DNA of 64,000 nt, taken from a virus. The stretch spans positions 32,001 through 96,000 of the IMG/VR virus record IMGVR_UViG_3300035703_000027. One strand, 5' to 3'. Both the position numbers and the translations under genes were made by a program. Shown piece after piece: positions 2,913 to 57,794 of the stretch. The notes below the pieces were generated by a model. It was not told the origin of the DNA. It ran no database searches and saw only the letters and a list, made by a program, of their open reading frames with translations. Each line of letters begins with the position of its first letter. Position 1 is the stretch's first letter.

Positions 2913-2952
2913 GGCAATCAGGCGATCGCCCGGGCGCCAACGGTGGCACGCT
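2913..2952 (+). promoter_or_regulatory. class A promoter GGCAA-N29-CACGCT
   Basis: GGCAA 2913-2917, CACGCT 2947-2952, upstream of ATG 2974. Confidence 0.55.
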
Positions 2953-2973
2953 AGAGGCTGCCCGGAGGTAGCC

Positions 2974-5900
2974 ATGGCCCTGACGTTGCGTGTCCCGACC
3001 CGCCTGCTGAACCGCGACGAGCTGCTCTCGCTGCTCAAGTCGCTCAGCCACACCCGCGCGCACACGCGCCAGACGAAGTACGGCGCGCAGTGGGTGCACG
3101 ACTACTTCCGGCAGAGCAAGGAGGAGCGGGCGGCCCTGGTGGGCAAGCTCGCCAGGAAGCTCGCCCGGGGCGACCACCACGAGGCCATCGGCACGCTCGC
3201 GCAGGCCACGCTGGTGGCGAAGCGCATCAGCCGGCAGGCGCCCATCGACGTGCACGTGACGCAGGACGCGGACGGGCGCTACGGGGTGACGGCGAAGCCG
3301 AAGGCGACGCTCGCCATGCCGGTGGTGGCGTCGGCCGGCAAGGCCTACGTGGAGCACCCGGTGGCCGGCCGCGTCGAGATGAACGCGGTGCTCGCGGGCC
3401 GGGGGCTGCACCAGGTCGGGCGCAAGACGCTGGAGAAGCACGCGCACGTCGTGGCGACGATCGACGGGACGGACCACGCCACGGCGCTTGCCAAGCTGCA
3501 CGGCCAGCAGCGCGAGGCGATCGCCGCCCGGCTGGCGGCCGGCAAGACGGTGGCGGCCCGGGTGGTGGCGCCCCACGATTCTGCGTTGCACGCGCAGCTC
3601 GCCGGGGTGAAGGCGGAGCGGGCCCGCAAGGCGGAGCAGCGTCAGGCGGTCCGGCTGGCGCGCCAGGCGGAGCGCGAGGCGCGCGCGCAGCGCAACCTGG
3701 CGCGCGAGCAGCAGCGCACGGTGCGCAGGGCCGAGCAGAACCGGGCGCGCGCCGAGAAGCGGCGCACGGGCACAGGCCGCAAGCCCGGCGCGCAGCCGGG
3801 GAACGACAACGCCCAGGGTGCGCACGAAGTGCCCGCCTGGGCGCAGGGCGAGCGTACGCTGCCCACCTGGTCCTTCGGGGACGGCGGGGCGCGGCACGTC
3901 GCGGGGCTCGTCAAGGACGCGCTGGGCGAGCACGCGTTCCCGCAGACCACTGCATCGGCACCGGGCGCCATGGCCTATGTTTCGTGGCCGATGGGCGGCT
4001 ACAGCTACAACCTGGAGGTACGCCCCACCGCCGGCAACGTCATGGTGGCCTCGCTGGTGGCGCAGGACGGCAAGGGCCAGCAGGCGACGGTGTGGGAGCG
4101 GGCGGTGGACGGCACGCGTGACGACACCGAGGCCGCCCTGAAGGAGGGCGCCGGGGTGGCGCTGGTGCATGCGGGCCTGAAGGCCGGCACCCTGCCGCCC
4201 CTGCCCGAGCGCTGGTGGGCGCCGAAGCCGCCCGAGGTGGCGCCCACGCCCGAGGTGAAGCCGGCGGCCGAGAAGAAGCCGCGCGTCCGCAGCGGCAAGA
4301 AGGCCGGCGCGCAGCCCGGGAACGACAACGCCAAGGGGCCGCACGACGTGGAGCCGGCCGCCGAGGTGGCGAACCTGCACGCGCACCGGCACGACCTCGC
4401 GGAGCTGGTCAAGGCTGCGCTGGGGCCGGCCGGGGCGCGGCTGCGGGTGCAGGACTTCGCCCCGCGCGGACAGGGGGGCGTGCGGTCGATCATGGGACTT
4501 TCGGGCGCGGACCGGAAGGCGGCTATCGACGGGGTGGTGGGCCCCGGCAGTGCCCTGGAGATCGTAAGCGGCGAGCAGGGCGGGCCGGTCGAGCTGAGCT
4601 GGAGCATGCGGGGGGTCGCAGGGGTCGAGGAGAGCTACAGCCTGAAGGCCACGCCGGGTGGCGAGGTCGAGCTGGGGATGTGGCGCACCGACTACGACAA
4701 CCCGGACGCCAGCGGCTACGTGCCGCTGTGGCGCCAGCCGGCGGGGGCCTCGCTCGCGGAGGTGCAGGCCGCCCTTGCGGCGGGTGCCGAGGCAGCCCTG
4801 GTGCACGCCGGCGAGCGGGGGGACCAGGAGCTGCCGCCGCTGGGCGACGACACGGGCCGCAAGCCCGGCGCGCAGCCCGGGAACGACAACGCCAAGGGCA
4901 CCCGCGGCAAGAAGAAGGAGCGCGCGCCTCTGGCGACCCGGGACATCGCCGGCATGTCGCTGGAGGAGGTCAAGGCGCTCGTCGAGGACACCGCGTCCAT
5001 GCTGGATGGCAACACCGTCTACGACGGCGTGGTGATGGTCCAGGACGGCGCCGGGTTCAACGCGACGGACCACCACGCGGCGCTGCGCTGGCTGGGGCAG
5101 CACTACAAGACGGACCTCGACTACGTGCTGATGGCGCAGTCGCTCATCAAGTACAAGGGGCAGTACCTCGACGATCGCGCGGAGGTGTTCAAGGCGCTGG
5201 TGCGGGCGGCGGCCCCCGAGGACGGTGGTTCCGGGCCGCGCTTCAAGTGGAACATCAAGGCGGCGGGCTGGGTGCTCGGCAACGGGGACGTGCAGGGTGA
5301 GCGCCCGCCCATGTGCGTCTACGCCAAGGGCGAGGGCCAGTACGGGGTGCAGTTCAAGTACAACGCCGACTTCGTGGACGGCATCAAGCGGCTGGTGCCG
5401 CCAGGTCAGCGCACGTGGGACTCCGCCCGCAAGGAGTGGACCGTCAGCGCCCTGGGGGCGAACAAGCTGCTTGGGGAGTTTGGGCACCGGGTCGGGATCG
5501 ACTTCGAGGGGCACCAGGCCCTCGCGGCGGCGATGGAGTCCGAGGCGGGTGAAGCCGCCAAGAAGGAAGCCGCCGAGGCCGAGAAGCGCGCGGCCGAGCT
5601 GGCGGAGGCGCGGGTGCTGATGGGCGACGAGGTGCCGCAGGACGGAGAGTACGTGCTGCGGGGGCTCAAGGTCATCAAGGCGGCGCCTTACGTCACGCTG
5701 GAGGCGGTGCCGGGCTACGCGACCAACTACCAGGTGGCAGTGAAGTTCAACCAGTTCGACCCCGAGTTCAAGGATCGGCTCAAGGGGGCGGTGCGGGCGC
5801 GCTGGGAGCCTGCTTACAAGTCGTGGCTGGTGGACGCCCGCGAGGTGCGGGAGGTGCTCGCGCTGTTCCCGGGGGCCGGCATGGACGCCGCGGTGTACGA

Positions 5901-8460
5901 GGCCCACGGAGCCCTGCTTTCGGAGTCCGACGACGACCTCCGGCGGGCGCTGGGCATGTTCCCGGTCGTGAGCAAGGAGAACACCGACTTCCAGGAGCCG
6001 GCGGGCTGGTCCACGCACACGATGCACGACTACCAGCGCAAGGGTGCCAACTGGCTGCTGGAGACGAAGAAGGGGATCCTGGGGTTCGGGGTGGGGCTCG
6101 GCAAGTGCCTGGGGCACGGGACGCCGGTCATGATGGCCGACGGGAGCATCAAGCCGGTGCAGGACATCGTGAATGGCGATCGCGTGATGGGGCCGGACTC
6201 GGCGCCGCGGACCGTCATGGGGGTCAACCGGGGCCGCGGGCCGCTCTACCGCATCGAGCCCGTGAAGGGCGACGCCTGGGTCTGCAACGACGTGCACGTG
6301 CTGACGCTGCGCCAGAGCGTGGGCGGGGCGGTGTTCGACATTCCGCTGGACCAGTACCTCGCGCACAAGGACACGCGGGCGCTACGCGACGCCAAGCTGT
6401 TCCGGGTGCCGGTGGAGTTCCCGGCCCGGGCGACGGCGCTCGACCCCTACATCCTCGGGGTGTGGCTCGGGGATGGAAACTCGCACCGGCCGAACATCCA
6501 CACGGTGGACGAGCCGGTGATCGAGTACCTGGTGCGCGAGGCGCCGAAGTACGGCGTGGAGGCGAAGGTAAGCCCGCAGCGGACGTGCACGGACGTGTAC
6601 ATGACGACGGCACGGGGCAGTCGGCAGCGCAACGTGGTGCTGGAGGAGGTCCGGCGCTGCTGGGTGGGCGAGGAGAAGCGCATCCCGGCGGACTATCTGC
6701 GCAACGGGCGCGAGGCACGGCTGTTGCTGCTCGCCGGGCTTATCGACACGGACGGCCACCTGACGGGCGGGTGTTACGAGGTCATCACCAAGTTCCCCGG
6801 GTTGCGGGACGACGTGCTCTACCTGGCGCGCAGCCTCGGCTTCGCGGCGTATGCCTCACGGAAGGTGGCGACCATCAAGGCGACCGGCTTCGAGGGGGTG
6901 TACTGGCGCGTCGTCATCAGCGGCGAGCTGGATCAGGTGCCGTGCCGGGTGGCGCGCAAGCAGGCCCCGCCGCGGCGCAGCAAGAAGCTCGTGACCAACA
7001 CGGGGTTCACGGCGGTGCCGCTCGGGGAGGGCGACTACTACGGCTTCACGCTGGACGGTGATGGCCGGTTTTTGCTCGGGGACTTCACGGTCACGCACAA
7101 CACCAACATCAGCATCGCGGCGGCCTGCAAGGCGCAGGAAGAGCACCCGGGCCGGCCTGCTATCTGCGTGGTGCCCGGCAAGCGCCTGTATGGCTGGAAG
7201 GCGGACATCGAGGCGGCGATGCCGGGCAAAAAGGTGTTCGTGTTCGACCAGGGCACCTCAGAGCGCGAGCAGATCAAGAAGGCGGGCGACCTGAGCCAGT
7301 ACGACTTCATCGTCGTGACCTACCGGATGCAGACGATCGAGAAGGACCACCTGGTGGGCCTGAAGCCCAGCGTGGTCATCTACGACGAGGCGCACAAGCT
7401 CAAGAACAAGAAGGCCCAGCAGTCGCAGGCAGCGGCGGAGCTGTCGGCGGCGGCGCCCTATGTGTGGGACCTGACGGCCACGCCGATGCCCAACCGGCCG
7501 GACGAGCTGATGGCCCTCATTCAGCGCAACCACGGCAAGAAGGCCATCCCGTCCAAGGACCTGTGGAACCGCTACTACAAGGTCGAAAAGAGCCGGTTCG
7601 GCTCGAAGGTGGTGGGCATCAAGGATCCCGAGGGCCTTAAGCAGGCGATCGCGCCGTTCGTGTTCATGAAGCGGGGCGACGACGCGGACGTGAACCTCAA
7701 TCTGCCGCCGCTGCGCAAGGGGCGCACGGTGCTGGAGCAGACGCAGTTCGAGCCGGATCAGCGCAGGGCGTACAACAGCGCTGCCGCGAACGTCCTGGCC
7801 TACATCAAGAGCATCGGGGGCAACCCGACGGCGGCGCAGCGGGCGGAGGCGCTGGTGCGCATGGGCAAGCTGGAGCAGATTGCCATCACGCCGGAGCTGG
7901 TGGATCCGACCTACAGCAAGCGGACGCCGAAGATACAGGAGATGCTCGACGAGATCGAGAACCGGGAGGGCGAGTTCCCGGGCAAGGGCCACGTGGTGTT
8001 CTGCCGGTTCGCGCAGGCCCTCCAGATTGCGAAGCGCGAGGCCCTCGCGGACGGGATGTTCAGGCCGGATGAGATCGCCATCATCGACGGGGCCACGTCC
8101 AAGCCGGACGTGCAGCGCATCCAGGACGCCCTGAACGCGGGCCGGCTGAAGCTGGTGCTGTGCTCGGATGCGGCGATGGAGGGCCTGAACTTCCAGCGGG
8201 GCTCGAATCACATGGTGCACCTCGACACCCCGTGGAGCCCGTACATGCAAGAGCAGCGCGACGGCCGGGTGTACCGGCAGGGCCAGCAGGAGCCGGTGCG
8301 CATCCAGACCATCGCGCAGGGCCCGATCGACCAGCATAAGGACACCCTGTCGATGCGCAAGGAGCGCATGAACGCGCAACTGTTCGGCAAGCAAGACGAG
8401 GAGGCCGCGGCCGCCGCCGTGACGGTGGCCGACCTCATGACGATGGCCCGGGAGGTGTAG
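2974..8460 (+). CDS. giant SNF2/SWI2-family helicase with diverged cargo leader, internal repeats, two HARP-like domains and an intein
   Basis: RBS GGAGG before ATG 2974. Walker A GVGLGK|T is split by an intein. Motifs YDEAH, LTATPMPN, EGLNFQ...PWSP...QRDGRVYRQGQ. LLK/SL near the N-terminus. Confidence 0.9.
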   Translation: MALTLRVPTRLLNRDELLSLLKSLSHTRAHTRQTKYGAQWVHDYFRQSKEERAALVGKLARKLARGDHHEAIGTLAQATLVAKRISRQAPIDVHVTQDADGRYGVTAKPKATLAMPVVASAGKAYVEHPVAGRVEMNAVLAGRGLHQVGRKTLEKHAHVVATIDGTDHATALAKLHGQQREAIAARLAAGKTVAARVVAPHDSALHAQLAGVKAERARKAEQRQAVRLARQAEREARAQRNLAREQQRTVRRAEQNRARAEKRRTGTGRKPGAQPGNDNAQGAHEVPAWAQGERTLPTWSFGDGGARHVAGLVKDALGEHAFPQTTASAPGAMAYVSWPMGGYSYNLEVRPTAGNVMVASLVAQDGKGQQATVWERAVDGTRDDTEAALKEGAGVALVHAGLKAGTLPPLPERWWAPKPPEVAPTPEVKPAAEKKPRVRSGKKAGAQPGNDNAKGPHDVEPAAEVANLHAHRHDLAELVKAALGPAGARLRVQDFAPRGQGGVRSIMGLSGADRKAAIDGVVGPGSALEIVSGEQGGPVELSWSMRGVAGVEESYSLKATPGGEVELGMWRTDYDNPDASGYVPLWRQPAGASLAEVQAALAAGAEAALVHAGERGDQELPPLGDDTGRKPGAQPGNDNAKGTRGKKKERAPLATRDIAGMSLEEVKALVEDTASMLDGNTVYDGVVMVQDGAGFNATDHHAALRWLGQHYKTDLDYVLMAQSLIKYKGQYLDDRAEVFKALVRAAAPEDGGSGPRFKWNIKAAGWVLGNGDVQGERPPMCVYAKGEGQYGVQFKYNADFVDGIKRLVPPGQRTWDSARKEWTVSALGANKLLGEFGHRVGIDFEGHQALAAAMESEAGEAAKKEAAEAEKRAAELAEARVLMGDEVPQDGEYVLRGLKVIKAAPYVTLEAVPGYATNYQVAVKFNQFDPEFKDRLKGAVRARWEPAYKSWLVDAREVREVLALFPGAGMDAAVYEAHGALLSESDDDLRRALGMFPVVSKENTDFQEPAGWSTHTMHDYQRKGANWLLETKKGILGFGVGLGKCLGHGTPVMMADGSIKPVQDIVNGDRVMGPDSAPRTVMGVNRGRGPLYRIEPVKGDAWVCNDVHVLTLRQSVGGAVFDIPLDQYLAHKDTRALRDAKLFRVPVEFPARATALDPYILGVWLGDGNSHRPNIHTVDEPVIEYLVREAPKYGVEAKVSPQRTCTDVYMTTARGSRQRNVVLEEVRRCWVGEEKRIPADYLRNGREARLLLLAGLIDTDGHLTGGCYEVITKFPGLRDDVLYLARSLGFAAYASRKVATIKATGFEGVYWRVVISGELDQVPCRVARKQAPPRRSKKLVTNTGFTAVPLGEGDYYGFTLDGDGRFLLGDFTVTHNTNISIAAACKAQEEHPGRPAICVVPGKRLYGWKADIEAAMPGKKVFVFDQGTSEREQIKKAGDLSQYDFIVVTYRMQTIEKDHLVGLKPSVVIYDEAHKLKNKKAQQSQAAAELSAAAPYVWDLTATPMPNRPDELMALIQRNHGKKAIPSKDLWNRYYKVEKSRFGSKVVGIKDPEGLKQAIAPFVFMKRGDDADVNLNLPPLRKGRTVLEQTQFEPDQRRAYNSAAANVLAYIKSIGGNPTAAQRAEALVRMGKLEQIAITPELVDPTYSKRTPKIQEMLDEIENREGEFPGKGHVVFCRFAQALQIAKREALADGMFRPDEIAIIDGATSKPDVQRIQDALNAGRLKLVLCSDAAMEGLNFQRGSNHMVHLDTPWSPYMQEQRDGRVYRQGQQEPVRIQTIAQGPIDQHKDTLSMRKERMNAQLFGKQDEEAAAAAVTVADLMTMAREV
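3775..4899 (+). repeat. three copies of the peptide repeat G(R/K)K(P/A)GAQPGNDNA(Q/K)G separating duplicated domains
   Basis: Near-identical 45-nt units at 3775, 4294 and 4855. The two intervening domains both end in ...AALVHAG. Confidence 0.85.
6106..7101 (+). mobile_element. intein with LAGLIDADG homing endonuclease (332 aa)
   Basis: Starts CLGHGTPV, ends DFTVTHN followed by Thr. PYILGVWLGDG and LLAGLIDTDG blocks are present. Confidence 0.93.
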
Positions 8461-8713: not shown

Positions 8714-8753
8714 GGCAAACACCCGGCCCCCGTGGCGCGCGCTGCGCTACGCT
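8714..8753 (+). promoter_or_regulatory. class A promoter GGCAA-N29-TACGCT
   Basis: GGCAA 8714-8718, TACGCT 8748-8753. Confidence 0.7.
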
Positions 8754-8772
8754 GGGGCCGGAGGGTGTCGCC

Positions 8773-11598
8773 ATGCGGTTGTTTGCTGCCATCTACCTGG
8801 ACCTGTTGAAGGCCCTGATTCAGGTCAAGGCCCACACCCGGAAGGACGGCACCCAGGTGCGGGCGCACACCCGCAACATCCAGTCCCGGGCCGAGCGCAA
8901 GGAGCTGGTGGCGGCCCTCGCGCGCAAGATGGCGGACGGCGCGCGCACGCGCCACGCCACCCTGGCGTCGGCCGTCGGGGCCGCCCGGTACGCGTCGAAG
9001 GTCAACGGCAAGGCCGTGCACGTGTACGAGCACCCGGAAGGCGGCTGGGTCGCGACCCATGACGAGACGCACACGGAGGGGCACCCCGAGAAGATCGTCG
9101 CCCTGAAGGGCCGGGCGCGGCTGCACCGGGCGGGCGAGGCCTCGCGCAGCCTGGCGCACCTCAAGGGGCCCATCCTGGAGCACGTCGAGAAGCCGGCGCC
9201 CGCACCCAAGGTGAAGCCGGCCCGGCCCAAGCGGGAGAAGCAGCCGGAGCCGGTGGCGACGCCCGAGCCGGCCGCGAACGACGCGGAGGGGCTGCGCGCG
9301 CAGGCGGAGGCGCTGGGGATCCGGCTGTCGGCGGTGGAGAAGCGGGCGCTGGCGAACGGCAACCGGGTCGTGATGGGCTGGCTGCGCAAGCAGATCGAGA
9401 AGCGGCAGGGCAAGCCCGCGGCGCCCAAGCCGGCGCCCGTGGCGCCCGAGGTGGAGCAGGTGGCGCCCGAGCCTGACGCGCCCAAGCCGGAAGAGAAGCC
9501 CGCCGAACGGAAGCCCCGGGCGGAGAAGCCCAAGGCCCCCGCGCCGGAGAAGGCGGCCGACGCGGAACCCAAGGGGCCGCGCGGTGAACGCGAGTACGAG
9601 GACGTGGGCGAGAAGATCGGGGGGGCGCGCAAGGACCTCGCGGCAGCGTTCGCCCGGGGCGAAAAGAGCTTCGAGAACATCGACTGGTCCGAGATGCAGG
9701 AACTCCCCGAGACGGCGGCCAAGGTCATCATCAAGGCCAACCTGATTGGGCACCTGACACCAGAGCACCTCAAGAGCTTGGGGATGGACGCCCGCGCCGC
9801 GTACATGCTGGATCACATCCTCGGGACCATCGTGCGGGCTCCCAAAGACAGCAACTTGGAGCGTTATCGCTATGCGCGGGCGCTGGACCGCATCGCCAGG
9901 GCGGTGCGTAACGTCAAAACGCTGGACGACCTGCACGGCATGCTGCGAGATATGCACGACGAAGCCGCTGGCGTTTACGGCGACGCCGAGGATCTTGCCC
10001 CCCTGCAACTGCTACAGGCCAAAAAGGCCGTGGTCAGCAAGCGAATCCAGGACCTATATGCCGCTGGCATCCACCCGTCTGGAGACAACGCAGAACTCAA
10101 CAACCTGTTGGCGGAACGCAACAACCTGTGGGACGAGATGAGCACGCAGCTCGACAAGGTGCGCGCCAAGTCACGCAGCACGCCACACCCCTGGGGTGCA
10201 TGCTACGGCGCACTCGGTGCGAACTTCGCCAAAGGCCTGGACAAGCTCGGCTACCAGGTCAGCGATTTTGGGATCCCGTCAGACACCAAGACGATCATGA
10301 ACCTGCCCCGCGGCACCTACAAGACCTCGTGGAGTGACGCCCTGAGCAAGGCGCGCGGCATGAAGGCCGACGACTGGAGCTGGTCCGAAAAGGCGTCAGA
10401 GGGCTCTACGGCCCCGAAGGAAAAGGCAGCCAAGGGAGCAAAGCCGACGGGCGAGATTCGCCTGCCGGACTGGAAGCGCAAGACCCCCGAGCAGTACGAG
10501 CGCACGGGCGGCAAGACGGTGGACTTCGGCGCCCTCTCGAAAGACGGCAAGATCAAGCCGGAGGGCATTATGCAGGCGTTCAAGCTGCGAGGTGTCGAGT
10601 ACGGCAACTGGGTCACGCAGGCCGAGGCGGCCCACCACACGCAGCGCGCCGGCGAGGCCCTGCAAGACCTCGCGACAATTCTGGGGGTCACGCCAGAGCA
10701 TGTCAGCTATGGCGGACGGCTGGCCCTGGCGTTTGGGGCGCGGGGTTCGGGGAAAGCTTTGGCGCACTACGAGTCCGAACGTAAGGTCATCAACCTGACC
10801 AAGCACGCTGGTGGCGGCACGCTGGCCCACGAGTGGGCCCACTTCCTCGACAACATCGTGGCAAACGTCTCGCAGCCGACAACGGGTGAGGTGCAGGACG
10901 CGACGCGTTACATGTCTCACTGGGACGAGAAGGGGGTGCCCGGCCAGGCGCACCCACGCGTCGCACAGGCGATCGCGGGCGTCCTCAAGGCCATGCACGA
11001 GGGCGGCGTTCCCCAGCTTGAATCAGTCAAGCCGCCAAAAAACCCGGCCCCGCTCTACTACAGATACGCCGACCTGGACCAGTTTGTCGCCGAGCACGGC
11101 CCGCAAGAAGGCTTCAACAAGTACATCGAGGGCAAGCGTCAGACCGCGCGGTGGCAGATGCGCACGAGCACCGTGCGCGACTATGCCAAGTACGTCGCGG
11201 CGAAAACGGGGACCATCATCCACTATGACGTGGGGACGCAGAACAGCGATTTTTACACGACGGCCATCACGCAGGACATGGGCTCACCAAAATACTGGGC
11301 AACGCCCCACGAAATGTTTGCGCGGGCGTTCGAGGCCTACGTGCAGGACAAGGGCGCAGAGAAGGGCATCACCAACAACTACCTGGTGGACGGAACCAGG
11401 GTGCCCTCGGACCTCACATACCGGCACCCCACGGCAGGAGAGCGCCCCTTCGCGGTGTACCCGGTGGGCGAGGAGCGCAAGCGCATCAACGCCGCGATGG
11501 ACGACCTGATGGCCGCCCTGCGGGAGACGGACACCCTGAAGAAGGCCCTGGCGCTCGCGGGCCCGTCGAGCGGGATGCTGTTCCGGCGCTGGTGGTAG
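8773..11598 (+). CDS. cargo-leader protein with large-polyvalent-protein (LPD5/LPD1-like) domains and HExxH motif
   Basis: Conserved leader; EDVGEKIGGARKD; FKLRGVEYGNWV; LAFGARG...AHYE...VINLTK...LAHEWAHFLD; YWATPHEMFARAFEAY; C-terminal LKK/AL tail. Confidence 0.8.
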   Translation: MRLFAAIYLDLLKALIQVKAHTRKDGTQVRAHTRNIQSRAERKELVAALARKMADGARTRHATLASAVGAARYASKVNGKAVHVYEHPEGGWVATHDETHTEGHPEKIVALKGRARLHRAGEASRSLAHLKGPILEHVEKPAPAPKVKPARPKREKQPEPVATPEPAANDAEGLRAQAEALGIRLSAVEKRALANGNRVVMGWLRKQIEKRQGKPAAPKPAPVAPEVEQVAPEPDAPKPEEKPAERKPRAEKPKAPAPEKAADAEPKGPRGEREYEDVGEKIGGARKDLAAAFARGEKSFENIDWSEMQELPETAAKVIIKANLIGHLTPEHLKSLGMDARAAYMLDHILGTIVRAPKDSNLERYRYARALDRIARAVRNVKTLDDLHGMLRDMHDEAAGVYGDAEDLAPLQLLQAKKAVVSKRIQDLYAAGIHPSGDNAELNNLLAERNNLWDEMSTQLDKVRAKSRSTPHPWGACYGALGANFAKGLDKLGYQVSDFGIPSDTKTIMNLPRGTYKTSWSDALSKARGMKADDWSWSEKASEGSTAPKEKAAKGAKPTGEIRLPDWKRKTPEQYERTGGKTVDFGALSKDGKIKPEGIMQAFKLRGVEYGNWVTQAEAAHHTQRAGEALQDLATILGVTPEHVSYGGRLALAFGARGSGKALAHYESERKVINLTKHAGGGTLAHEWAHFLDNIVANVSQPTTGEVQDATRYMSHWDEKGVPGQAHPRVAQAIAGVLKAMHEGGVPQLESVKPPKNPAPLYYRYADLDQFVAEHGPQEGFNKYIEGKRQTARWQMRTSTVRDYAKYVAAKTGTIIHYDVGTQNSDFYTTAITQDMGSPKYWATPHEMFARAFEAYVQDKGAEKGITNNYLVDGTRVPSDLTYRHPTAGERPFAVYPVGEERKRINAAMDDLMAALRETDTLKKALALAGPSSGMLFRRWW

Positions 11599-11599: not shown

Positions 11600-11639
11600 G
11601 GCAAGGGGGAGCCTCACGGGGCGCCCCCGCCCTTACGAT
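11600..11639 (+). promoter_or_regulatory. class A promoter GGCAA-N29-TACGAT
   Basis: GGCAA 11600-11604, TACGAT 11634-11639. Confidence 0.7.
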
Positions 11640-11657: not shown

Positions 11658-13529
11658 ATGCGTTCGATGTCGCACAGGCCTGGCCTGGCGTTGCTCAAGG
11701 CCCTCATCCAGGTGCGCCAGCACACCCGGAAGGACGGCACGACCGTGCGGGCCCACACGCGCAACGTGCAGACCCGGGGCGAGCGGCGCGCGCTGGTGGC
11801 GACGATGGCGGAGCGCATGGCCGGCGGTGCGCCCGTGCGGCACGCGAGCCTCGGGTCCGCCCTCGGGGCGGCCCGGCACGCGTCCAAGGTCAACGGCAGG
11901 GCCGCGCACGTGTACGAGCACCCGGAGGGGGGCTGGGTATCGACGCACGACGGCAGCCACACGGAGGGCCACGACGAGAAGATCGTGGCGGTGAAGGGCC
12001 GGGCGCGCCTGCACCGTGCGGGCGAGGCATCGCGCAGCCTGGCGCACCTCAAGGGGCCCATCGCGGAGCACGTCGAGAAGCCCGCGCCCGCGCCCGCGCC
12101 CAAGGTGAAGCCGGCCCGCCCCAAGGCCCCGCCGCCCGCGGCCGAGCCGGTGCCCGCCGCCCCGGCCGCGGACGCGGCGGCGGCGCGGCAGCGCGAGGCG
12201 GTCCTGCCCGCGGAGCGGCTGACCTACCCGGGGGCGCCGGAGGCGGTGGTGTACCACGACGCCAACAACCACTCGGTCGTGATCAGCTTCCGCGGCGGGG
12301 TGTCCACGGCGGCGACCCGCGAGGCCCTCAAAGCCCGGGGGTTCCGCTACAACGAGGTCGGCAACGACTGGTACGCGCCCCACACGCCCGAGGCCGTGCG
12401 CCTGGCGAACTACACGCGCCGGCGCTACAACGGCCTGACGCCCGAAGAGCACGCCCAGCGGGAGGCCTGGGACACCCTGACGCCCGCGAAGCGCCACGCG
12501 ATCGCCTACGAGCCGCTGACGCAGCTCGGGGGCGCCGGCCCGCAGCACGACAACCGCCCGCACGGGTTGCTGGCGCGCGCCCGGGGCCTCGACCTTCCCG
12601 TGTCGCCGGAGATGGCGCAGGCGGTGCAGGCGCACGACCACCTGGCCATGGTGCAACTGCACGGCGCGGTGCATGCCGCCGAGGGGCGGCGGGGCCGGGA
12701 GGAGGAGCTGCACGACGGCGTGGACCCCCACCCGATGGCGCTGCTGAAAGCGGCGTCCGAGGCCGGGCTGACGTTTGCCCCCGACGAGGTGCAAGCCCTC
12801 GTGGCGCGGCAGCGGCCCGCCCTGCTGGCGGCGCAGACGCGGGTGGCCGAGGCGCAGGTACAGGCCAAGCGCCGCCGGGCGCTGGACAACGCGGGCCTGA
12901 CGGGCGGCGCGCAGCCGCGCGCGTCCTTCACCGCCCCCATCCAGGTGCGGCGGCCCGGCGGGGGCGTCGCGGCGGTGTCCCACACCTTCGAGACCGGCCA
13001 GCGGGTGCTCTGGTCGCGCAAGGGGCAAGCGGTCCCCGTGACGCTCGCCGGCATCATGCAGAAGCCCGGCCAGGCGCCTACCTTCCAGGTGTTCAGCGAT
13101 GACGGGCAGCCGTTCAACGTGCCGGTGGCCGCCATCGCCGGGGCCCCGACCTACGACGCCCCGCCGGCGCAGGGCCCGGCCGACGGGCCCAGGTTCGTGG
13201 ACGCCTACACCGCCAACATCGAGGTCTGGGAGAAGCGGGGCGACGGGGCGGCAGGGGTGCGCAGGCCGCACACCTTCCGGCCCGGCCAGCGCGTCCGCTT
13301 TGCGGACGGCCGCGGCTTCTCCACCGGCGTGCTGCTGTTCATCTACCAGGAGGCCGGCAAGCGCCAGCCGACGTTCCGCGTGGTGAACGATCACACCGGC
13401 GAGGTGCATGCCGTGGTGGCCGACAACATGGTGCGGCGCGTGACCTACAGCCGGCCGCCGGCGCAGGCGGACGAGCTGCGCAAGGCCCTGGAGGGCCCGT
13501 CGAGCCGGCTGCTGGTCGCGCGCTTGTAG
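11658..13529 (+). CDS. cargo-leader protein, paralog A (two HTFxxGQRV beta-barrel-like repeats)
   Basis: RBS GGAGG; LLK/AL plus conserved leader; C-terminal LRK/ALEGPSSRLLVARL. Confidence 0.8.
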   Translation: MRSMSHRPGLALLKALIQVRQHTRKDGTTVRAHTRNVQTRGERRALVATMAERMAGGAPVRHASLGSALGAARHASKVNGRAAHVYEHPEGGWVSTHDGSHTEGHDEKIVAVKGRARLHRAGEASRSLAHLKGPIAEHVEKPAPAPAPKVKPARPKAPPPAAEPVPAAPAADAAAARQREAVLPAERLTYPGAPEAVVYHDANNHSVVISFRGGVSTAATREALKARGFRYNEVGNDWYAPHTPEAVRLANYTRRRYNGLTPEEHAQREAWDTLTPAKRHAIAYEPLTQLGGAGPQHDNRPHGLLARARGLDLPVSPEMAQAVQAHDHLAMVQLHGAVHAAEGRRGREEELHDGVDPHPMALLKAASEAGLTFAPDEVQALVARQRPALLAAQTRVAEAQVQAKRRRALDNAGLTGGAQPRASFTAPIQVRRPGGGVAAVSHTFETGQRVLWSRKGQAVPVTLAGIMQKPGQAPTFQVFSDDGQPFNVPVAAIAGAPTYDAPPAQGPADGPRFVDAYTANIEVWEKRGDGAAGVRRPHTFRPGQRVRFADGRGFSTGVLLFIYQEAGKRQPTFRVVNDHTGEVHAVVADNMVRRVTYSRPPAQADELRKALEGPSSRLLVARL

Positions 13530-13532: not shown

Positions 13533-13572
13533 GGCAACTCGGGGCCCGGGCAGCCGCTTCCGGCCCTACGAT
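13533..13572 (+). promoter_or_regulatory. class A promoter GGCAA-N29-TACGAT
   Basis: GGCAA 13533-13537, TACGAT 13567-13572. Confidence 0.7.
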
Positions 13573-13590: not shown

Positions 13591-15297
13591 ATGCGCTCGT
13601 ACTTCGTCGGCCCGGGGCTGCAAGCCCTGGAGAAGGCCCTCATCCAGGTGCGCCAGCACACCCGGAAGGATGGTACGGTCGTGCGGGCCCACACCCGCAA
13701 CGTCCAGTCCCGCTCCGAGCGGCACGACATGGTGGCGGCCCTGTCGCGCCGGATGGCGGGCGGGGAGCACGTGCGGCACGCCACGCTGGCCTCCGCCCTG
13801 GGGGGCGCCCGGCACGCCTCGAAGGCGAACGGCAAGGCGGCCCACGTGTACGAGCACGCCGACGGCGGCTGGGTGGTGACGCACGACGCCAGCCACACCG
13901 AGGGCCACAAAGAGCGCATCGTGGCGGTGAAGGGCAAGGCGCGCCTGCACCGGGCGAAGGGACCCTCGCGCAGCCTGGCGCACCTCAAGGGCCCCATCGC
14001 GGAGCACACGCCCAAGCCGTTCGTGCCCAAGGTGAAGCCGGCCCGGCCGAAGAAGCAGCCACCGGCCCCCGTGGTGGCGCCGCTGGACGCGCATGGGGCC
14101 AAGCAGCGCGACCGGGTGCTGCCGCCGCAGCGCATCGCGCTGGAGGAGCGCCCCACGGTGCTTGCCGCGCGCGACATGACGGCGCGCAAGGTCGTCATCA
14201 AGTTCAAGGGGGCGCTCCCGAGCCTCAAGACGGCGGAGGTGTTGCGGGCGCGCGGGTTCGAGCCGCAGCCGGGCGACCAGGTGTGGCTCGCCCCGCTTTC
14301 GCGGCGGGCGGTCCAGCTCGCGAACTACACGCGCCGGCGCTACAACGGGCTGTCGCCCGAGGAGCAGGCCGCCTGGGAGCGCTGGCCCGAGCTGCACCCG
14401 CACGAGCGGGAGCTGCTGGCTGCCGCCCCCCTGCCGCGCATCCGGGAGCGGCCCAAAGACTACCTGGTGCCTAACGACCTCACGGAGCGGGCGCGGGCCG
14501 CGGGCGCGGCCTACGGCATCGACCCGCAGTTCTGGCGCAAGGCCCAGGAGTCGCCCGCGTGGCAGCGGCACCTGGAGCGCCGGGTGGCGATCGCCGAGGC
14601 GGCGATCGACCCCGGGCAGCAGGAGCCCGACGACACCCCGCACGGCCTGCTGCTGCGGGCGCACCGCCTCGCCTTGCCGGTGGCGCAAGACCTCGCCGAT
14701 GCGGCCGTGAAGCTGGACCATGCCGCCCTCGCGAACCTCGCCGGCCAGGTCGAAGCGGCCGAACGGTCCGCGGGCGTGGCCCCCGCCTGGGAGCCTGCCG
14801 ACGATCGCAACGTGCGGCACGAGCCCGTTTCCCCGGGCGAGCTGATTCAGCGCGCGCACCGGGCGGGCCTCACGCTGCCGCGCGAGAGCCTGCAAGTGCT
14901 GCTGGCGGAGAAGCCCGACGAGACGGCGGAGGCCCTGCGGCGCGTCAAGGCGGCGGAGGCCGCGCAGTCCGGGACGGGCAGCTTCACGGCCACGCTGCGC
15001 ACGCCCACGGGGCCGGTGTCCCACACCTTCCGGCCCGGCCAGCGCGTGCTCTACCGGACGCCGTGGGGGCGTGTCGAGGAGGCCACCTTGCAGTCGATCG
15101 ACCTGGAGAAGCGCCGCGTCGGGCTGGTGACGTGGCGCGGTGCGAGCGTCGAGGCCCCGATCCTCGACATCACGCAGCCGATGTACCGGGTCATGCCCAA
15201 GGACCCCCCGACGGGCCTGCCCATGGCCAAGGCGCTGGGCCTGCCGCCCCGGGCCCGGCCCGTCAGCTCGCGGCTGTTTGCACGCTTCCTCGGCTGA
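13591..15297 (+). CDS. cargo-leader protein, paralog B
   Basis: RBS AGGAGG; LEK/AL plus leader; shares LANYTRRRYNGL, PHGLL and HTFRPGQRV with paralog A; C-terminal MAK/AL tail. Confidence 0.8.
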   Translation: MRSYFVGPGLQALEKALIQVRQHTRKDGTVVRAHTRNVQSRSERHDMVAALSRRMAGGEHVRHATLASALGGARHASKANGKAAHVYEHADGGWVVTHDASHTEGHKERIVAVKGKARLHRAKGPSRSLAHLKGPIAEHTPKPFVPKVKPARPKKQPPAPVVAPLDAHGAKQRDRVLPPQRIALEERPTVLAARDMTARKVVIKFKGALPSLKTAEVLRARGFEPQPGDQVWLAPLSRRAVQLANYTRRRYNGLSPEEQAAWERWPELHPHERELLAAAPLPRIRERPKDYLVPNDLTERARAAGAAYGIDPQFWRKAQESPAWQRHLERRVAIAEAAIDPGQQEPDDTPHGLLLRAHRLALPVAQDLADAAVKLDHAALANLAGQVEAAERSAGVAPAWEPADDRNVRHEPVSPGELIQRAHRAGLTLPRESLQVLLAEKPDETAEALRRVKAAEAAQSGTGSFTATLRTPTGPVSHTFRPGQRVLYRTPWGRVEEATLQSIDLEKRRVGLVTWRGASVEAPILDITQPMYRVMPKDPPTGLPMAKALGLPPRARPVSSRLFARFLG

Positions 15298-16173: not shown

Positions 16174-16202
16174 TTGACACCTGGATCGCGCTGCCATACG
16201 CT
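16174..16202 (+). promoter_or_regulatory. sigma70-type promoter TTGACA-N17-TACGCT
   Basis: Perfect -35 at 16174-16179, 17-nt spacer, -10 at 16197-16202; points toward the sigma factor gene. Confidence 0.65.
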
Positions 16203-16429
16203 GGATCTGCTCTTGATCTTGTATGGCTTTTTGCGCGGTTTTGGGTGTCAGGGGCGGCGGCTCTAGGGCGGCGGCTTAGGAAACCAACTCCGACGGGTTA
16301 GATGCTTCGGTGTCTGACTGGGCTATCTCGATCCTCGTAACCACCTCCGTGTTCACGCACGGGGGTGGTTATGTTTTATAGGGGCTCGCTCGGTTGGATC
16401 GCAAGGTCGGCGATCGCAGACGGGACCGG

Positions 16430-16469
16430 GGCAATCCGCCGCGAAGCGCGCACGGGGCCGTGTTACGGT
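16430..16469 (+). promoter_or_regulatory. class A promoter GGCAA-N29-TACGGT
   Basis: GGCAA 16430-16434, TACGGT 16464-16469, ahead of ATG 16490. Confidence 0.7.
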
Positions 16470-16489: not shown

Positions 16490-18334
16490 ATGCCCCACCT
16501 GCTGCGATCCGTTGCCGATCACCTCGCCGGGTCCACCCCGCTCCAACGGGTCGCCGGCGCGCTGGCCGGCCCCCTCGAAAAGGGCCTCGTCCACACCTAC
16601 ACGCGCCACATGCACGGCGTCGCCCAGGTGGTGCCCGAGCACATGCGCGCGGACCCCGCCGCCATCATCGGGATGCTTGCCAAGCGGCACCACCACCAGC
16701 TCAGCTTCGACCTGTTCGGCGGTGGCGGCGGCGGGGCGCCCCCGGCCGTCCAGCCCCACGGCGCCGGCAACGGTGGCACGGTGCAGCGCGACAGCATGTA
16801 CCGGGTGCAGGACCAGGAGCCGGCCGTCGGCAGCATCGCGCAGGCCACCTTCAAGCCCGAGCCCGCGCCCCCGGCCACGCAGACGCACCGTCCGCGCGTG
16901 CCCCAGGGGCTGCACCTGCCGGCGGAGAAGGCCGAGGCCCGCAAGGTGCTGGAGGGGGCGCACCGGGACCTGGTGACGGCCCGCCAGCTCGAAGAGGACG
17001 CCAAGCTGGAGCCCGGCCGCCGCGAGGCGCTGCTCGCGCGCGCCACCACGCTGCGCGCGCGGCTCGCCGACGCGGCCGGCCCGGACTACGAGCGCGCCGT
17101 CGAGGGCAAGCTCGTGGCGAACTACGCCCCGGAGATTGGCGGCGTGGTGGCCGACTGGGCCCACAAGGTGGGCGTGCCCGTCGAGCGGGACGCGCACGGC
17201 CGGCCGTCGGGGAACTTCGGCCTGCTGCATGCCGAGGCGCTCGACGCCGCCTACCAGGCGGTGCACCGCTACCGCACCCACAACCGCACCGGCCTGCTGA
17301 AGCTCGTGAAGGGCCAGGTGGAGCAGCGCCTGTTCCGGCACTGGAAGCGGGCCGTCGGCAAGGGCGCGTTCAACATGGGCCAGAACGAGGCCGAGGACGC
17401 GAGCAAGGTCGCACGCTACACCAGCGCGCACGCGTCGGCCTACGGCGAGCAGCCCACGGACGAGCAGGTGGCGGAGGCCCTCGGGATGACGCCCAAGCGG
17501 GTCGCCGACATCAAGCGGCAGGCGATCGCCGCGCTCGGGGACAGCCTGAACCAGACCAGCGAGGACGGCAGCGAGCTGGGAGAGCGGGTGGGCAGCAGCC
17601 GCCAGGACCCGGCCCGGCGGGCGGAGGCCGACGAACTGTCCGACGCCGTGCATACCGCGCTTGCGGAGCTGGATCCGCTGAAGCGCGCCACGGTCCGGGT
17701 GGCGCACGGCATGGGGCTCGACGCGGACACGGCCGCGCACCTCGCCGCGCACACGCAGCTCGACGACCTCGCGGCGGCCTTGCAGGACCACGCCCACCTC
17801 GCCGAGCCCGACGCCCGCGCGACGGCCGCGGTGGGGGCGGTCCAGTGGCGCGCCCCGGGGGACGCGGCGCTGCGGGTGCGGGCGGCGCTGCACCTGCTGG
17901 ACCACGGCGCGGACCCGGTGCAGGCCTTGCAGGCGCCCGAGCAGCGGGAGGATGGGGACAAGCACGACATTTCCGTCTCCGAGGTCTACCGGCGCGTCGG
18001 GCTGAAGCCGGCCAACAGCGGCAGCGTGCTGCGGTCTGCTGAGCAGGCGCTGGCCCGGCACCCGGCGCTGGTCGGCTTCCGGGACGCGCTGCACAAAAGC
18101 TTGTTCGCGCCCATTGGCACGCCGTGGGGGTCGCTGCTCGCGGCGATCGCCCCTGCGGCCCTCCTTGCGAGCCTGCCGGCGCCCTTGGCAGCCCTCGCGC
18201 CCTCGCTCCTCGAAGATGATCGGCACGGCTGGGCGCTGGTGCGGGAGGATCGCGCCGCGGAGGCTGCCATTCTGGCGGCGGCGGCCCAGGGGGGTGGGGA
18301 TGAAACGGTTCACGGTGACGGCGCGGGGCGTTAG
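16490..18334 (+). CDS. sigma-70-family RNA polymerase sigma factor with cargo-like leader and region-4 insertion
   Basis: Region 2-like LVANYAPEI...EALDAAYQAVHRY; region 3 GEQPTDEQVAEALGM...SLN; region 4 LAELDPLKRATVRVAHG...ISVSEVYRRVGL. LEK/GL at the N-end and LHK/SL at the C-end. Confidence 0.75.
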   Translation: MPHLLRSVADHLAGSTPLQRVAGALAGPLEKGLVHTYTRHMHGVAQVVPEHMRADPAAIIGMLAKRHHHQLSFDLFGGGGGGAPPAVQPHGAGNGGTVQRDSMYRVQDQEPAVGSIAQATFKPEPAPPATQTHRPRVPQGLHLPAEKAEARKVLEGAHRDLVTARQLEEDAKLEPGRREALLARATTLRARLADAAGPDYERAVEGKLVANYAPEIGGVVADWAHKVGVPVERDAHGRPSGNFGLLHAEALDAAYQAVHRYRTHNRTGLLKLVKGQVEQRLFRHWKRAVGKGAFNMGQNEAEDASKVARYTSAHASAYGEQPTDEQVAEALGMTPKRVADIKRQAIAALGDSLNQTSEDGSELGERVGSSRQDPARRAEADELSDAVHTALAELDPLKRATVRVAHGMGLDADTAAHLAAHTQLDDLAAALQDHAHLAEPDARATAAVGAVQWRAPGDAALRVRAALHLLDHGADPVQALQAPEQREDGDKHDISVSEVYRRVGLKPANSGSVLRSAEQALARHPALVGFRDALHKSLFAPIGTPWGSLLAAIAPAALLASLPAPLAALAPSLLEDDRHGWALVREDRAAEAAILAAAAQGGGDETVHGDGAGR

Positions 18335-18506
18335 GTTCAAGAGCGCCAGCCGCGGGGGTCTGGTGGACCCCAAACACAAGCAACCGACGAACATCAGCTA
18401 CACCATCCTGGCAGAGGACATGGAAGCCGCCGCGGACCAGATCGAGTGGGTGATGCGGGCGGAGGACTTCGTGTTCCAGGATCTGCTCGTCACGGGCCCC
18501 CTGTGA
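18300..18506 (+). CDS. small hypothetical protein
   Basis: ATG 18300 overlaps the sigma gene end; 68 aa with normal composition. Confidence 0.5.
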   Translation: MKRFTVTARGVRFKSASRGGLVDPKHKQPTNISYTILAEDMEAAADQIEWVMRAEDFVFQDLLVTGPL

Positions 18507-18574
18507 CGTGCAGCGCCCGTGCTGCGGGCGTGCAGCACGGGCGCTGTGCGGGGGCTGCGTGCGCGCGGCGCGCC

Positions 18575-19874: not shown

Positions 19875-19913
19875 GGTTCCTCCTTGGCCGGCTGCCTGCC
19901 GGGCTCAGGGGGG

Positions 19914-42187: not shown

Positions 42188-42214
42188 TTCATCCGTGCCC
42201 CGGCGCGATTATGC
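42188..42214 (-). promoter_or_regulatory. class B motif GCATAA-N13-CGGATGAA
   Basis: Upstream of ATG 42148. Confidence 0.55.
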
Positions 42215-42541
42215 GCGGCGCGCTGCGCGATCGGACCGGATGAGCGCGAGCACGGCGGCGCGCTCGGCGTCGCTCAGCGGGCGCGAGGCGCCCCGGTCGT
42301 CCTCGGCCACGAACACGAGCGGGCCGGCGAGCCAGTCGCCCGCGGCGTGCCACATCATGTTGGCGCGCAGCCCGAGCACCTTGGCGGCCGGGTTGCCCCA
42401 GGCGAACACCTGCGGGTACTCCGGCAGCCACGGGCCGAACACGTCGAGGTCCCCGCCCACGAGCTGCTGAAGGTCGCCGTACTTGCGCGGCAGCGGGATG
42501 AGGTCGGGGTTTGCGCCGGGGCGCAGGTGAATCGCTTCCAT
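42209..42541 (-). CDS. DUF3846-like small protein
   Basis: DLQQLVGGDLDV...N...DWLAGPLVFVAEDDRG...L. Confidence 0.55.
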   Translation of the reverse strand: MEAIHLRPGANPDLIPLPRKYGDLQQLVGGDLDVFGPWLPEYPQVFAWGNPAAKVLGLRANMMWHAAGDWLAGPLVFVAEDDRGASRPLSDAERAAVLALIRSDRAARRA

Positions 42542-42566: not shown

Positions 42567-42623
42567 ATTTTAAGCACGCGCGTGGCAATTCCCCGATCCG
42601 GTTGCCACACCCCGCCGGATACT
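42567..42623. promoter_or_regulatory. divergent pair of class A promoters sharing a GTGGCAA/TTGCCAC inverted repeat
   Basis: Minus: GGCAA(42602-42606)-N29-TAAAAT(42567-42572). Plus: GGCAA(42584-42588)-N29-GATACT(42618-42623). Confidence 0.65.
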
Positions 42624-42629: not shown

Positions 42630-43436
42630 GTGGTTCGCGCAGAGTTCGATGGTCGTGATTTCCGCTTGACCCTCCCCGCCACCTTGGTGAAGGGGGGCGG
42701 CAAGGCCGCGCCCGTCGGCGGGCGCCTGGTCGAGGGCGTCGCAAGCACCCCGGCGCAGGATCTCCACGGCGAGCGCGTCGAGCCGTCCGGGCTCGACCTC
42801 ACCTACTTCGAGCGCCACGGGCGCATCAACTGGGACCACGGCAAGGAGCCCAGCTCCATCATCGGCGAGCCCGTGGACTGGACATGCACGCCCAAGCAGT
42901 TCTACCTGCACGCGCGCCTGTACGAGAACGTGAAGCGGGCCGAGGACGCCTACGCGCTGCTGAAGGCTGGCGCGCAGCTCGCGTGGTCCGTCGAGGGCCG
43001 CGTGACCGAGCGCGACCCGGACGACCGGCTGCACGTCACGGGCGCCCTGGTGGTGAACGTGGCGCTGACGCCCAACCCGGTCAACCCGGAAACCACCGCG
43101 TTCCTGACGGATCGCGTGGCAAAAAGCGTCACCGAGGGCGCAGCCCTGGCACAGAATCAAGCCGGGGCCAGCTCCGACCTCGCACCCCTGGTGGTGCAGG
43201 CGCTGGAGGGCGCCCCGCAGAACCTTCTGACCGTGCACCTGGCGCTGGCGCCCACCTGCGGCTGTATGGCCTGGGACGCGGACGGCATGGGCTTCGTGCA
43301 CGGTTACGCGGGAGCTGTGGCGCACTTCAGCCGGTGCTGCGGTGCGCCCATCGACCAGGCGGCAGCCCTGGCACATCGTTATCGCGCGGTTGCCCGTGTC
43401 ACCGGGCGCCAGTTACGGAGGGAGAACAACCCATGA
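42630..43436 (+). CDS. prohead (capsid maturation) protease
   Basis: VEGVAST...DLHGERV...INWDH...IIGEP...WSVEG; sits immediately before scaffold and capsid. The start is uncertain. Confidence 0.85.
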   Translation: MVRAEFDGRDFRLTLPATLVKGGGKAAPVGGRLVEGVASTPAQDLHGERVEPSGLDLTYFERHGRINWDHGKEPSSIIGEPVDWTCTPKQFYLHARLYENVKRAEDAYALLKAGAQLAWSVEGRVTERDPDDRLHVTGALVVNVALTPNPVNPETTAFLTDRVAKSVTEGAALAQNQAGASSDLAPLVVQALEGAPQNLLTVHLALAPTCGCMAWDADGMGFVHGYAGAVAHFSRCCGAPIDQAAALAHRYRAVARVTGRQLRRENNP

Positions 43437-56781: not shown

Positions 56782-57750
56782 GTGCTTCACCACCGCCAGG
56801 CCGGGTTGCCGGCCCCCCGGGACACCCGCAAGGAGGCCGTGGGGGGGCTCTCGAACCTGCACATGGGCCGCGTGACCTTCGTGCACTGGGCGGAGCGCTG
56901 CGTGGATCTGCTGCTCGACGACGCCACGGTGCTGTCCCGGGTGCCGGTGCTCGGGCCGGACAGCGGGCCCGACCGCGGCACGGACGACCTCCCGCGAAAG
57001 CGCGCGCTGGTGGTGGTGGCGTTCCTGTACGGGCACCGCGACCAGCCGGTGGTGCTCGGGTGCCTGAACCGCCCCAGCCACGCGCTGCCGGTCCCGGAGG
57101 TGCCCGAGGACGATCGCGGGGGGCTGAGCCGCCGGGTGTGGGCGAGCGGGACGCACGCGGCGGTGCTCGGGGACGGCCAGTTCGAGCTGCGCACGCCGGA
57201 CGGCACGGTGATCGTGGTCGGGCCGGAGCCGGCGGCGGTGGGCAACTTCAGCGAGACGCAGCGCGAGGCGTGGAACGGCAACCCCTACAAGGCGCCGGAG
57301 CCGGAGGCGCGCGAGGCACCGCCGGACTTCGCCGTGACCATCCGGCGCCCGGACGGCACGCATGTGACGCTCAAGGGCGGCAAGCTGACGATCGAGGCGC
57401 CCGAGACGGTGGAGGTGACGCAGACCGACGGCGGCACGGTGCTGCTTGCGGGCGGCAAGGCGACGGTGACGGCGCCCGGGCGCATCCAGGTGGAGCAAGA
57501 GGGCCAGGGGTCCATCACGCTGGACGGCGCCACGCTGACGCTCAAGGCGCCCGGCAAGGTGGACGTGCAGGCGCCGTCCATTCACCTGCGCGCGGGGCCG
57601 TCGGGCCTCGCCGTGAGCCCTGCGGGCGTGGCGCTGGTGGGCCCGTCGCTCCAGTGGTACGCGACGCCCCTGACGGTCGCGCAGTTCCCGCCCGCGGGGC
57701 CCGTGAACCTCATCCCGATGCCGGGCGTGTCGCCGCTCCCGCTCGTGTAG
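56782..57750 (+). CDS. baseplate central spike (OB-fold plus beta-helix repeats)
   Basis: GRVTFVHW...VVVAFLYG...PVVLGCL; repeated xTIxAPG-like strands. Confidence 0.65.
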   Translation: MLHHRQAGLPAPRDTRKEAVGGLSNLHMGRVTFVHWAERCVDLLLDDATVLSRVPVLGPDSGPDRGTDDLPRKRALVVVAFLYGHRDQPVVLGCLNRPSHALPVPEVPEDDRGGLSRRVWASGTHAAVLGDGQFELRTPDGTVIVVGPEPAAVGNFSETQREAWNGNPYKAPEPEAREAPPDFAVTIRRPDGTHVTLKGGKLTIEAPETVEVTQTDGGTVLLAGGKATVTAPGRIQVEQEGQGSITLDGATLTLKAPGKVDVQAPSIHLRAGPSGLAVSPAGVALVGPSLQWYATPLTVAQFPPAGPVNLIPMPGVSPLPLV

Positions 57751-57754
57751 CCCT

Positions 57755-57794
57755 GGCAAAGCGAGGCGGCGGCGCGCCCCGGCCCCGCTAGACT
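57755..57794 (+). promoter_or_regulatory. class A promoter GGCAA-N29-TAGACT
   Basis: GGCAA 57755-57759, TAGACT 57789-57794. Confidence 0.7.

Follow-up and report, generated by a model that had tools for sequence, protein, structure and literature searches.

A two-block GGCAA-N28/29-TAnnnT motif before virion, capsid-cargo and lysis genes of an uncultured high-GC myovirus: a putative late promoter class

The locus and its class B sites

The stretch analysed here (the window) comprises the 64,000 nucleotides (nt) from base 32001 to base 96000 of one viral contig 121,189 bp in length (IMG/VR record IMGVR_UViG_3300035703_000027; G000), and our subject is a recurrent two-block motif, termed class B, which consists of a GGCAA box, a spacer of 28 or 29 nt and a TAnnnT hexamer, and which precedes genes on both strands. 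Positions are those of the window unless given as contig positions. The contig has a GC content of 71%, an estimated completeness of 80% and a coding density of 89%, and its gene content identifies an uncultured phage with a contractile tail. Tail genes include a tube initiator, a baseplate J gene, an M23 peptidase lying inside a tape-measure-sized protein, and a sheath gene only 26-27% identical to the sheaths of SPO1-like phages; the head module includes a head protease, scaffold and capsid, with the portal and large terminase genes located on the contig beyond the window. Between the portal and the head module sits an array of large genes whose products have in common an N-terminal leader of approximately 150 amino acids (aa). 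Eleven such leader-bearing proteins were identified (window 2974-30037 and contig 17968-33271), one of which carries the leader internally, and leader identity reaches 70-88% among six of them. The payloads behind the leader are mutually unrelated, including an SNF2 protein with a Hint/LAGLIDADG intein, LPD1 and DarA_C-like domains, and we read these proteins as cargo packaged into the capsid.

The class B sites and candidates identified in the window are the following:

2913-2952, plus strand: class B site with the weak hexamer CACGCT (18.5 bits), 22 nt before the 1828-aa SNF2/intein cargo gene (2974-8460)
8714-8753, plus strand: class B site, N29, TACGCT (28.0 bits), 20 nt before the 941-aa LPD1 cargo gene (8773-11598)
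11600-11639, plus strand: class B site, N29, TACGAT (22.4 bits), before the 623-aa cargo gene (11658-13529)
13533-13572, plus strand: class B site, N29, TACGAT (27.2 bits), before the 568-aa cargo gene (13591-15297)
16430-16469, plus strand: class B site, N29, TACGGT; 614-aa sigma-70-family gene (16490-18334) 21 nt downstream
27694-27732, plus strand: class B site, N28, TAGAAT (22.6 bits), before the 761-aa cargo gene (27752-30037)
42584-42623, plus strand: class B box whose hexamer, GATACT, is poor; downstream lies the head maturation protease gene (42630-43436), first of the head module
57755-57794, plus strand: class B site, N29, TAGACT; tail tube initiator gene (57812-58789) 18 nt downstream
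63573-63611, plus strand: possible class B site, N28, TATCCT (19.4 bits), intergenic, 209 nt before the start of a fibre gene at 63820
42567-42606, minus strand: class B site, N29, TAAAAT (21.9 bits), 26 nt before a DUF3846 gene (42209-42541)
41129-41167, minus strand: weak candidate with a perfect box and the hexamer CACCAT, N28 (14.5 bits), 32 nt before a 76-aa gene
34306-34345, minus strand: class B site, N29, TACGAC (21.2 bits), 39 nt before a 290-aa gene (33395-34267)
30782-30821, minus strand: class B site, N29, TATGCT (24.3 bits), 27 nt before a 221-aa gene (30090-30755)
26711-26750, minus strand: class B variant with a TGCAA box, N29, TACGCT (21.1 bits), the next called gene being 211 nt away

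All of the sites named in a first-pass annotation of this DNA carry the letters it described, and most of them retain their membership under a weight matrix. A minus-strand candidate at 40768 was dropped (approximately 0.7 bits), and those at 2913 and 42584 combine a good box with a poor hexamer. A further match at 48743, which lies within a gene, is best taken for chance and was also dropped.

Searches for GGCAA-N28-30-TAnnnT recovered 10 occurrences in the window, whereas 100 dinucleotide shuffles averaged 0.73 and never gave more than 3. Across the whole contig there are 19 exact class B matches; in 17 of these a co-oriented start codon follows 5-60 nt after the end of the hexamer, a zone that accounts for 2.9% of strand positions (binomial P = 1.4e-24), and only one lies inside coding DNA, on a contig which is 89% coding. 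The anticipated enrichment of the motif upstream of genes relative to their interiors is thus borne out. A two-block weight matrix yielded 23 hits of at least 16 bits against 0-1 in shuffles, and 25 of the 29 hits of at least 12.5 bits were intergenic and aimed at a start 7-53 nt away, with the qualification that the matrix was trained on this contig and is independent only for hits in other contigs.

Alignment of the 18 best N29 sites revealed that information is confined to two blocks, namely the box flanked by T upstream and A downstream, and the hexamer flanked by GC upstream and GG downstream. The extended consensus can be written as T-GGCAA-A, 28/29 variable bases and GC-TAnnnT-GG, followed by a Shine-Dalgarno site and, some 20 nt further, an ATG (median distance from hexamer to ATG, 21 nt). 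The T, the A and the last T of the hexamer are nearly invariant, and spacing among the 20 best sites is N29 in 16 and N28 in four. In the same alignment the spacer holds zero information and, in keeping with the first-pass annotation, no -35-like word. The hexamer is of the canonical TAnnnT -10 type; setting it at -12 to -7 places the box at -47 to -41, in keeping with the earlier estimate of an element near -44, on the same DNA face as the usual -35 and one helical turn upstream of it. Class B lacks the -35 hexamer expected 16-18 bp ahead of a -10, with no information at -38 to -30, and canonical two-hexamer sites occur in the window at background level only. A sigma-54 promoter (-24 GG/-12 GC) was considered and rejected, there being no conserved GC after the box and the hexamer then lying within the transcript.

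Contig-wide, class B sites precede the portal gene, 9 of the 11 leader-bearing cargo genes, the sigma gene, the head protease and the tube initiator, together with a baseplate/fibre-network gene that is followed by a 1398-aa fibre protein, the holin and amidase genes, and a few small genes with no annotated function; nine of the sites stand before unrelated genes. The proposal that the motif precedes every leader-bearing gene therefore holds for nine of them and fails for two beyond the window (contig 20537 and 25472), which begin 16 and 4 nt after the preceding gene. Likewise, its attribution to head and baseplate genes applies to the tube initiator, the baseplate/fibre-network gene and, through the weak site at 42584, the protease, while the major capsid gene has no class B site of its own. 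From its placement, class B would serve about twenty virion, capsid-cargo and lysis genes, a target set suggestive of a late-gene class.

The divergent sites at 42584 (plus strand) and 42606 (minus strand) overlap within 42567-42623, between the DUF3846 and head protease genes, and their boxes form an inverted repeat, GGCAA-N13-TTGCC.

Conservation of class B in related phages

The motif is retained in relatives over a wide range of divergence. Among homologues of the tube initiator on short metagenomic contigs, 95%, 79% and 78% identical, the box, the hexamer and the distance between them are invariant while the spacer has been rewritten, and paralogous cargo genes also display two invariant blocks and a diverged spacer, indicating purifying selection on both blocks. 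A complete 157-kb relative (G001; 69% GC), whose structural proteins are 26-56% identical to those of the present phage, possesses class B sites at the same genes, including the tube initiator (37% identical at the protein level), the fibre-network gene and the head protease, and the box word is enriched approximately 20-fold in its upstream regions. The protease site, weak in our contig (42584), is strong in G001 (25.9 bits). Variant boxes were also found, with GTCAA before the sigma-bearing gene and GGCGA before the portal gene of G001, and a further relative of 54% GC carries GGCAT-N28-TAAATT before its tube initiator. The site at the sigma gene is kept in three other contigs (L143, L144 and L146), across which the sigma protein is 70%, 37% and 33% identical. 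In all, the box is retained across phages of 54-71% GC.

Given fixed blocks at a fixed distance, a free spacer and orthologous positions, these sites have the character of a promoter read by a protein. Together with their sense orientation and their persistence at the same genes at 33-37% protein identity, this supports the earlier proposal of a phage-specific promoter class, an assignment that we regard as very probable from comparative sequence evidence.

The clade is at present without an isolate. No close DNA relative was found in an annotated phage collection, and tblastn of the sigma protein against that collection gave no match. No match was obtained in a single-protein scan of viral contigs, nor was any prophage found in a search across species genomes, and scanning viral contigs with a 14-base motif gave nothing beyond isolated matches, apparently due to chance.

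The phage sigma factor and a second promoter-like class

Among the genes preceded by class B sites, that at 16490-18334 bears directly on how the motif may be read. Other features that enter the comparison are listed with it:

16490-18334, plus strand: divergent sigma-70-family protein, 614 aa
18945-19874: RecT
20521-20829: SpoVS/Alba-like protein, 102 aa, also in G001
30902-31675: ThyX, also in G001
39124-40236: DNA polymerase III beta clamp, also in G001
19940, 23312, 25483, 27312, 39129 and 42214, minus strand: sites of a second promoter-like class
29073, plus strand: site of the second class
contig 2579, 4339, 5506, 8589 and 11349: sites of the second class

The 614-aa protein shows a collinear match to sigma regions 3 to 4 and a region 2 signature visible in the family alignment. 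Its AlphaFold model is confident over residues 145-600, with best Protein Data Bank (PDB) matches that are all primary sigma factors. Sequence and model thus agree that this is a real but divergent member of the sigma-70 family. It has a disordered N-terminus of approximately 140 aa, a C-terminal extension, and a helical insertion of approximately 85 aa between regions 4.1 and 4.2. The alignment also shows it to be without the conserved region 2.3 aromatics that primary sigmas use on the -10 element, and its region 4.2 recognition helix is rich in small residues and variable among homologues. Some homologues are fused to SNF2 helicases in proteins of approximately 2,150-2,200 aa (P0012, P0015 and G001 100054-93590); BLAST found no link between the sigma N-terminus and the cargo leader. 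A 68-aa open reading frame (18300-18506) overlaps the end of the sigma gene and directly follows it in G001 and L143 as well; judging from this arrangement, its product may be a partner of the sigma.

Scanning the 121-kb contig for canonical promoters gave a sole strong instance, TTGACA-N17-TACGCT-GG at 16174-16208, which precedes the sigma gene by approximately 300 nt and has been retained in L143 and L144. From this promoter, the host primary sigma evidently uses ordinary -35/-10 promoters. Its hexamer type and downstream GG are those of class B, and since the two agree, we take the class B hexamer to be of host type. Between the canonical promoter and the class B site of the sigma gene stands a strong terminator with a 17-bp stem and a T tail (16336-16373); promoter and terminator could together produce a leader of approximately 170 nt, a small RNA or an attenuator. 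The stretch had no match in Rfam.

The second class, in the present contig, consists of GCATA, 16 nt and GGAT(A/G)G, in 12-13 copies compared with 1.1 expected from shuffles, and stands before RecT, an SNF2 helicase and small genes. Downstream of its sites there is usually a G-rich/C-rich hairpin as well as a CGAAAGGA ribosome site. In G001 the corresponding class consists of GGAAC, 17 nt and GATAG (14 copies compared with 0.5 expected), such that the -10-like word is common to both phages and the -35-like word differs. The two sigma proteins differ in the same manner, with region 2 conserved and the region 4.2 recognition helix different, whereas the class B box is identical in the two phages. 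Because the -35-like word of the second class co-varies with the region 4.2 helix, the phage sigma more likely reads this class than class B; the identity of the class B box in both phages, in turn, implies that its own reader must be conserved.

Candidate readers of class B

With moderate confidence, based on sequence and on analogy, we propose that class B sites are late promoters read by host polymerase carrying its primary sigma, together with a phage activator bound near -44 in the manner of the C and Mor proteins of phage Mu. In this scheme, host RNA polymerase would take TAnnnT and its G-rich downstream flank as the -10 element, with the -35 contact absent. A phage-encoded DNA-binding activator made earlier in infection would bind the asymmetric T-GGCAA-A at approximately -47 to -41, one helical turn upstream of the seat of sigma region 4 and on the same DNA face, from where it would recruit or stabilise the polymerase through direct contact with sigma region 4 or with the C-terminal domain of the alpha subunit. 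Direct contact is suggested because only 28 or 29 bp are tolerated, and the rigid spacing would then reflect the junction between activator and polymerase. Transcripts would start approximately 7 nt after the hexamer, with a leader of 10-15 nt that holds only the Shine-Dalgarno site. Host holoenzyme at the hexamer and a conserved phage protein at the box also form the simplest candidate set of readers. The first-pass annotation had left the choice between a modified sigma and an activator; the evidence favours an activator acting with the host primary sigma over a modified phage sigma, which co-varies with the second class.

Known systems place class B, as a variant, within an established kind, that of activator-dependent late promoters without a -35 box. 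In Mu, late promoters combine a -10 with an activator site whose centre is at -43.5, and a typical -35 is missing (PMC2582627). The likeness of class B to Plys, PI, PP and Pmom, the promoters that depend on C, and to the middle promoter with Mor, extends from the -10 without a -35 to an activator position matching the box centre at approximately -44, to late-gene control and to the host sigma-70 holoenzyme, established in Mu and proposed here. However, the Mu site is a 16-bp imperfect dyad bound by a dimer and overlapping the -35 region, whereas the class B box spans 7 bp and is asymmetric, and the Mor/C family (PF08765) had no match at E values up to 1 in either our approximately 80% complete contig or G001. 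Middle promoters of T4, read through MotA and sigma appropriation by AsiA, similarly combine a host-type -10 with a phage box at which a monomeric phage activator replaces the -35 element. With its centre near -30, the MotA box stands about 12-13 bp away from the -10, in contrast to the 28/29 bp that separate the class B box from its hexamer; the MotA domain (PF09114) had no match. In P1, late promoters have a -10, no -35 and depend on the phage activator Lpa (gp10), and P1 too packages Dar-type cargo in its capsid, but its 9-bp box lies at -22, and the three late promoters in the record annotation have it 4-9 bp away from the hexamer. No Lpa homologue was detected by phmmer at E values up to 10 among six-frame open reading frames of our contig and G001. 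SPO1-like and Twort-like phages, to which the virion module is distantly related through the sheath (26-27% identical), encode a sigma of their own and have late promoters that lack a -35 (PMC7698491); the -10 of those promoters is extended and distinctive and has no upstream element, unlike the host-type -10 and conserved far-upstream box seen here. A full-text literature search and the Mor/C, MotA and Lpa family searches revealed neither a description of the class B design nor a homologue of a known activator.

The most immediate alternative, that the 614-aa phage sigma itself reads class B, would place region 2 on the hexamer and region 4.2, displaced by the insertion, on the box, one turn further upstream than the usual -35. 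Collinear regions, the region 2 signature and structural matches mark the protein as a genuine sigma; its insertion of approximately 85 aa lies where region 4.2 could be displaced; the sigma module and class B co-occur in G000, L144, L146 and G001; and the arrangement of a class B site adjoining the sigma gene with a canonical promoter further upstream is typical of auto-regulated sigma factors. If true, this would entail a holoenzyme with a 28/29-bp spacer, a geometry not known for any sigma-70-family factor; specifically, we know of no such holoenzyme with a spacer of 29 bp. Moreover, the region 2.3 aromatics for the -10 are not conserved in the alignment, the recognition helix varies among homologues while the box does not, and it is the normally spaced second class whose -35-like word changes in step with that helix; this second, early class would be left without an evident reader. 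Owing to the co-variation and the variable recognition helix, we consider this alternative unlikely. Somewhat less likely again is another phage specificity factor not recognisable by sequence, for example a late sigma with a co-activator resembling gp55 and gp33 of T4, perhaps coupled to the beta sliding clamp of the phage itself, or a virion or non-virion RNA polymerase. The beta-clamp homologue encoded by the phage, and common to G001, lends itself to such a mechanism, as a clamp is used in late transcription by T4 (PMC2988020) and, according to the title of a 2026 paper, by Mu (PMC12867686). Furthermore, in Twort-like phages late promoters lacking a -35 are read by a phage sigma (PMC7698491), and no protein family was matched by three large cargo proteins (1517, 969 and 850 aa), the first of them also being without a PDB relative. 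Set against these points, the hexamer and its flank resemble a host-type -10, clamp-activated late promoters of T4 require no upstream box, and no RNA polymerase family was matched, in searches whose T7-type controls likewise returned no match.

Two further explanations dispense with a phage-encoded reader or with a promoter altogether. The box might be a borrowed site for a host transcription factor, or a promoter-proximal UP-like element for the alpha subunit, such that a phage activator is unnecessary; indeed, class II activators and the proximal UP subsite occupy the position of the box (-47 to -41), and searches for a phage activator came back empty. Retention of the box in phages of 54-71% GC, which probably have different hosts, can be cited in its favour, yet retention across such different base compositions is better suited to a reader that travels with the phage. 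As the box is not an A-tract, and control of late-gene timing would be lost, we regard this explanation as highly improbable. We attach the least weight, close to dismissal, to the view that class B is not a promoter but an RNA or DNA element, such as a processing site or a translational hairpin, or a passenger of cargo-gene duplication. In its favour, six of the cargo genes are paralogues of recent origin, sequences spanning box and Shine-Dalgarno site have a slightly better fold than their shuffles (mean z -0.84), and the Shine-Dalgarno site at 8714 is paired with the spacer's 5' part (z -3.45). The spacer alone is nevertheless unstructured (mean z 0.05), which led us to reject a spacer hairpin or cruciform, and the predicted folds differ among sites. 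Conserved blocks flanking a free spacer of fixed length are the opposite of an RNA-helix signature, and nine sites stand at unrelated genes, with orthologous positions kept in distant relatives.

Host polymerase assisted by a phage activator remains the reading we favour, although several considerations weigh against it. Proteins common to our contig and G001 were searched for a phage activator, and none was convincing; the reader could lie in the missing part of the contig, which is 80% complete. The information profile of the box has no dyad, repeat or second half-site, of which most activator sites have one. In addition, the host-type label of the hexamer rests on one conserved canonical promoter, separated by a terminator from the sigma reading frame, and the promoters of the six cargo genes with 70-88% identical leaders are paralogous copies and not independent events.

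Among the candidates considered for the activator, a 321-aa helix-turn-helix (HTH) protein (contig 117020-117985) is common to G001, where it adjoins the large terminase, and looks more like a small terminase or pac-binding protein, or an operator protein. A 122-aa protein (contig 108124), also common to G001, has a beta-sandwich model and is unconvincing as an activator. A tandem-HTH protein of 189 aa (contig 120214) has its matches among the excisionase and small-terminase families, and a MerR-type protein of 201 aa (21113-21718) is common to L144 but was not detected in G001. The SpoVS/Alba-like protein of 102 aa is common to G000, G001 and L144 and has its own class B site in G001 and L144; its role as the activator is speculative and is offered as a lead only. 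SpoVS was related to Alba by Rigden and Galperin (PMC2732212).

If correct, this reading would show at the sequence level how transcription is programmed in a clade of uncultured high-GC myoviruses; what sets the late class apart would be a box lying far upstream, at a rigid distance from a -10 of host type, and promoter and activator would make a compact candidate pair. As the motif would mark late genes directly, it should also help to tell which large proteins of no assigned function are virion cargo.

Other observations concern the surroundings of these genes. The 163-nt gap before the gene of the 321-aa HTH protein (L142:857-1019, equivalent to contig 116857-117019) contains seven copies of ACTTTAC(A/G) or its complement, an array that may serve as an operator or as a pac site. 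A search for tRNA genes gave none, and a 2-kb stretch at 36091-38094 has no called gene and contains weak canonical-promoter-like words. Finally, complementarity between spacer and Shine-Dalgarno site is present at some class B sites (8714-8790, z -3.45); read-through transcripts might there carry a masked ribosome site, and transcripts initiated at the class B site itself would be free of such masking.

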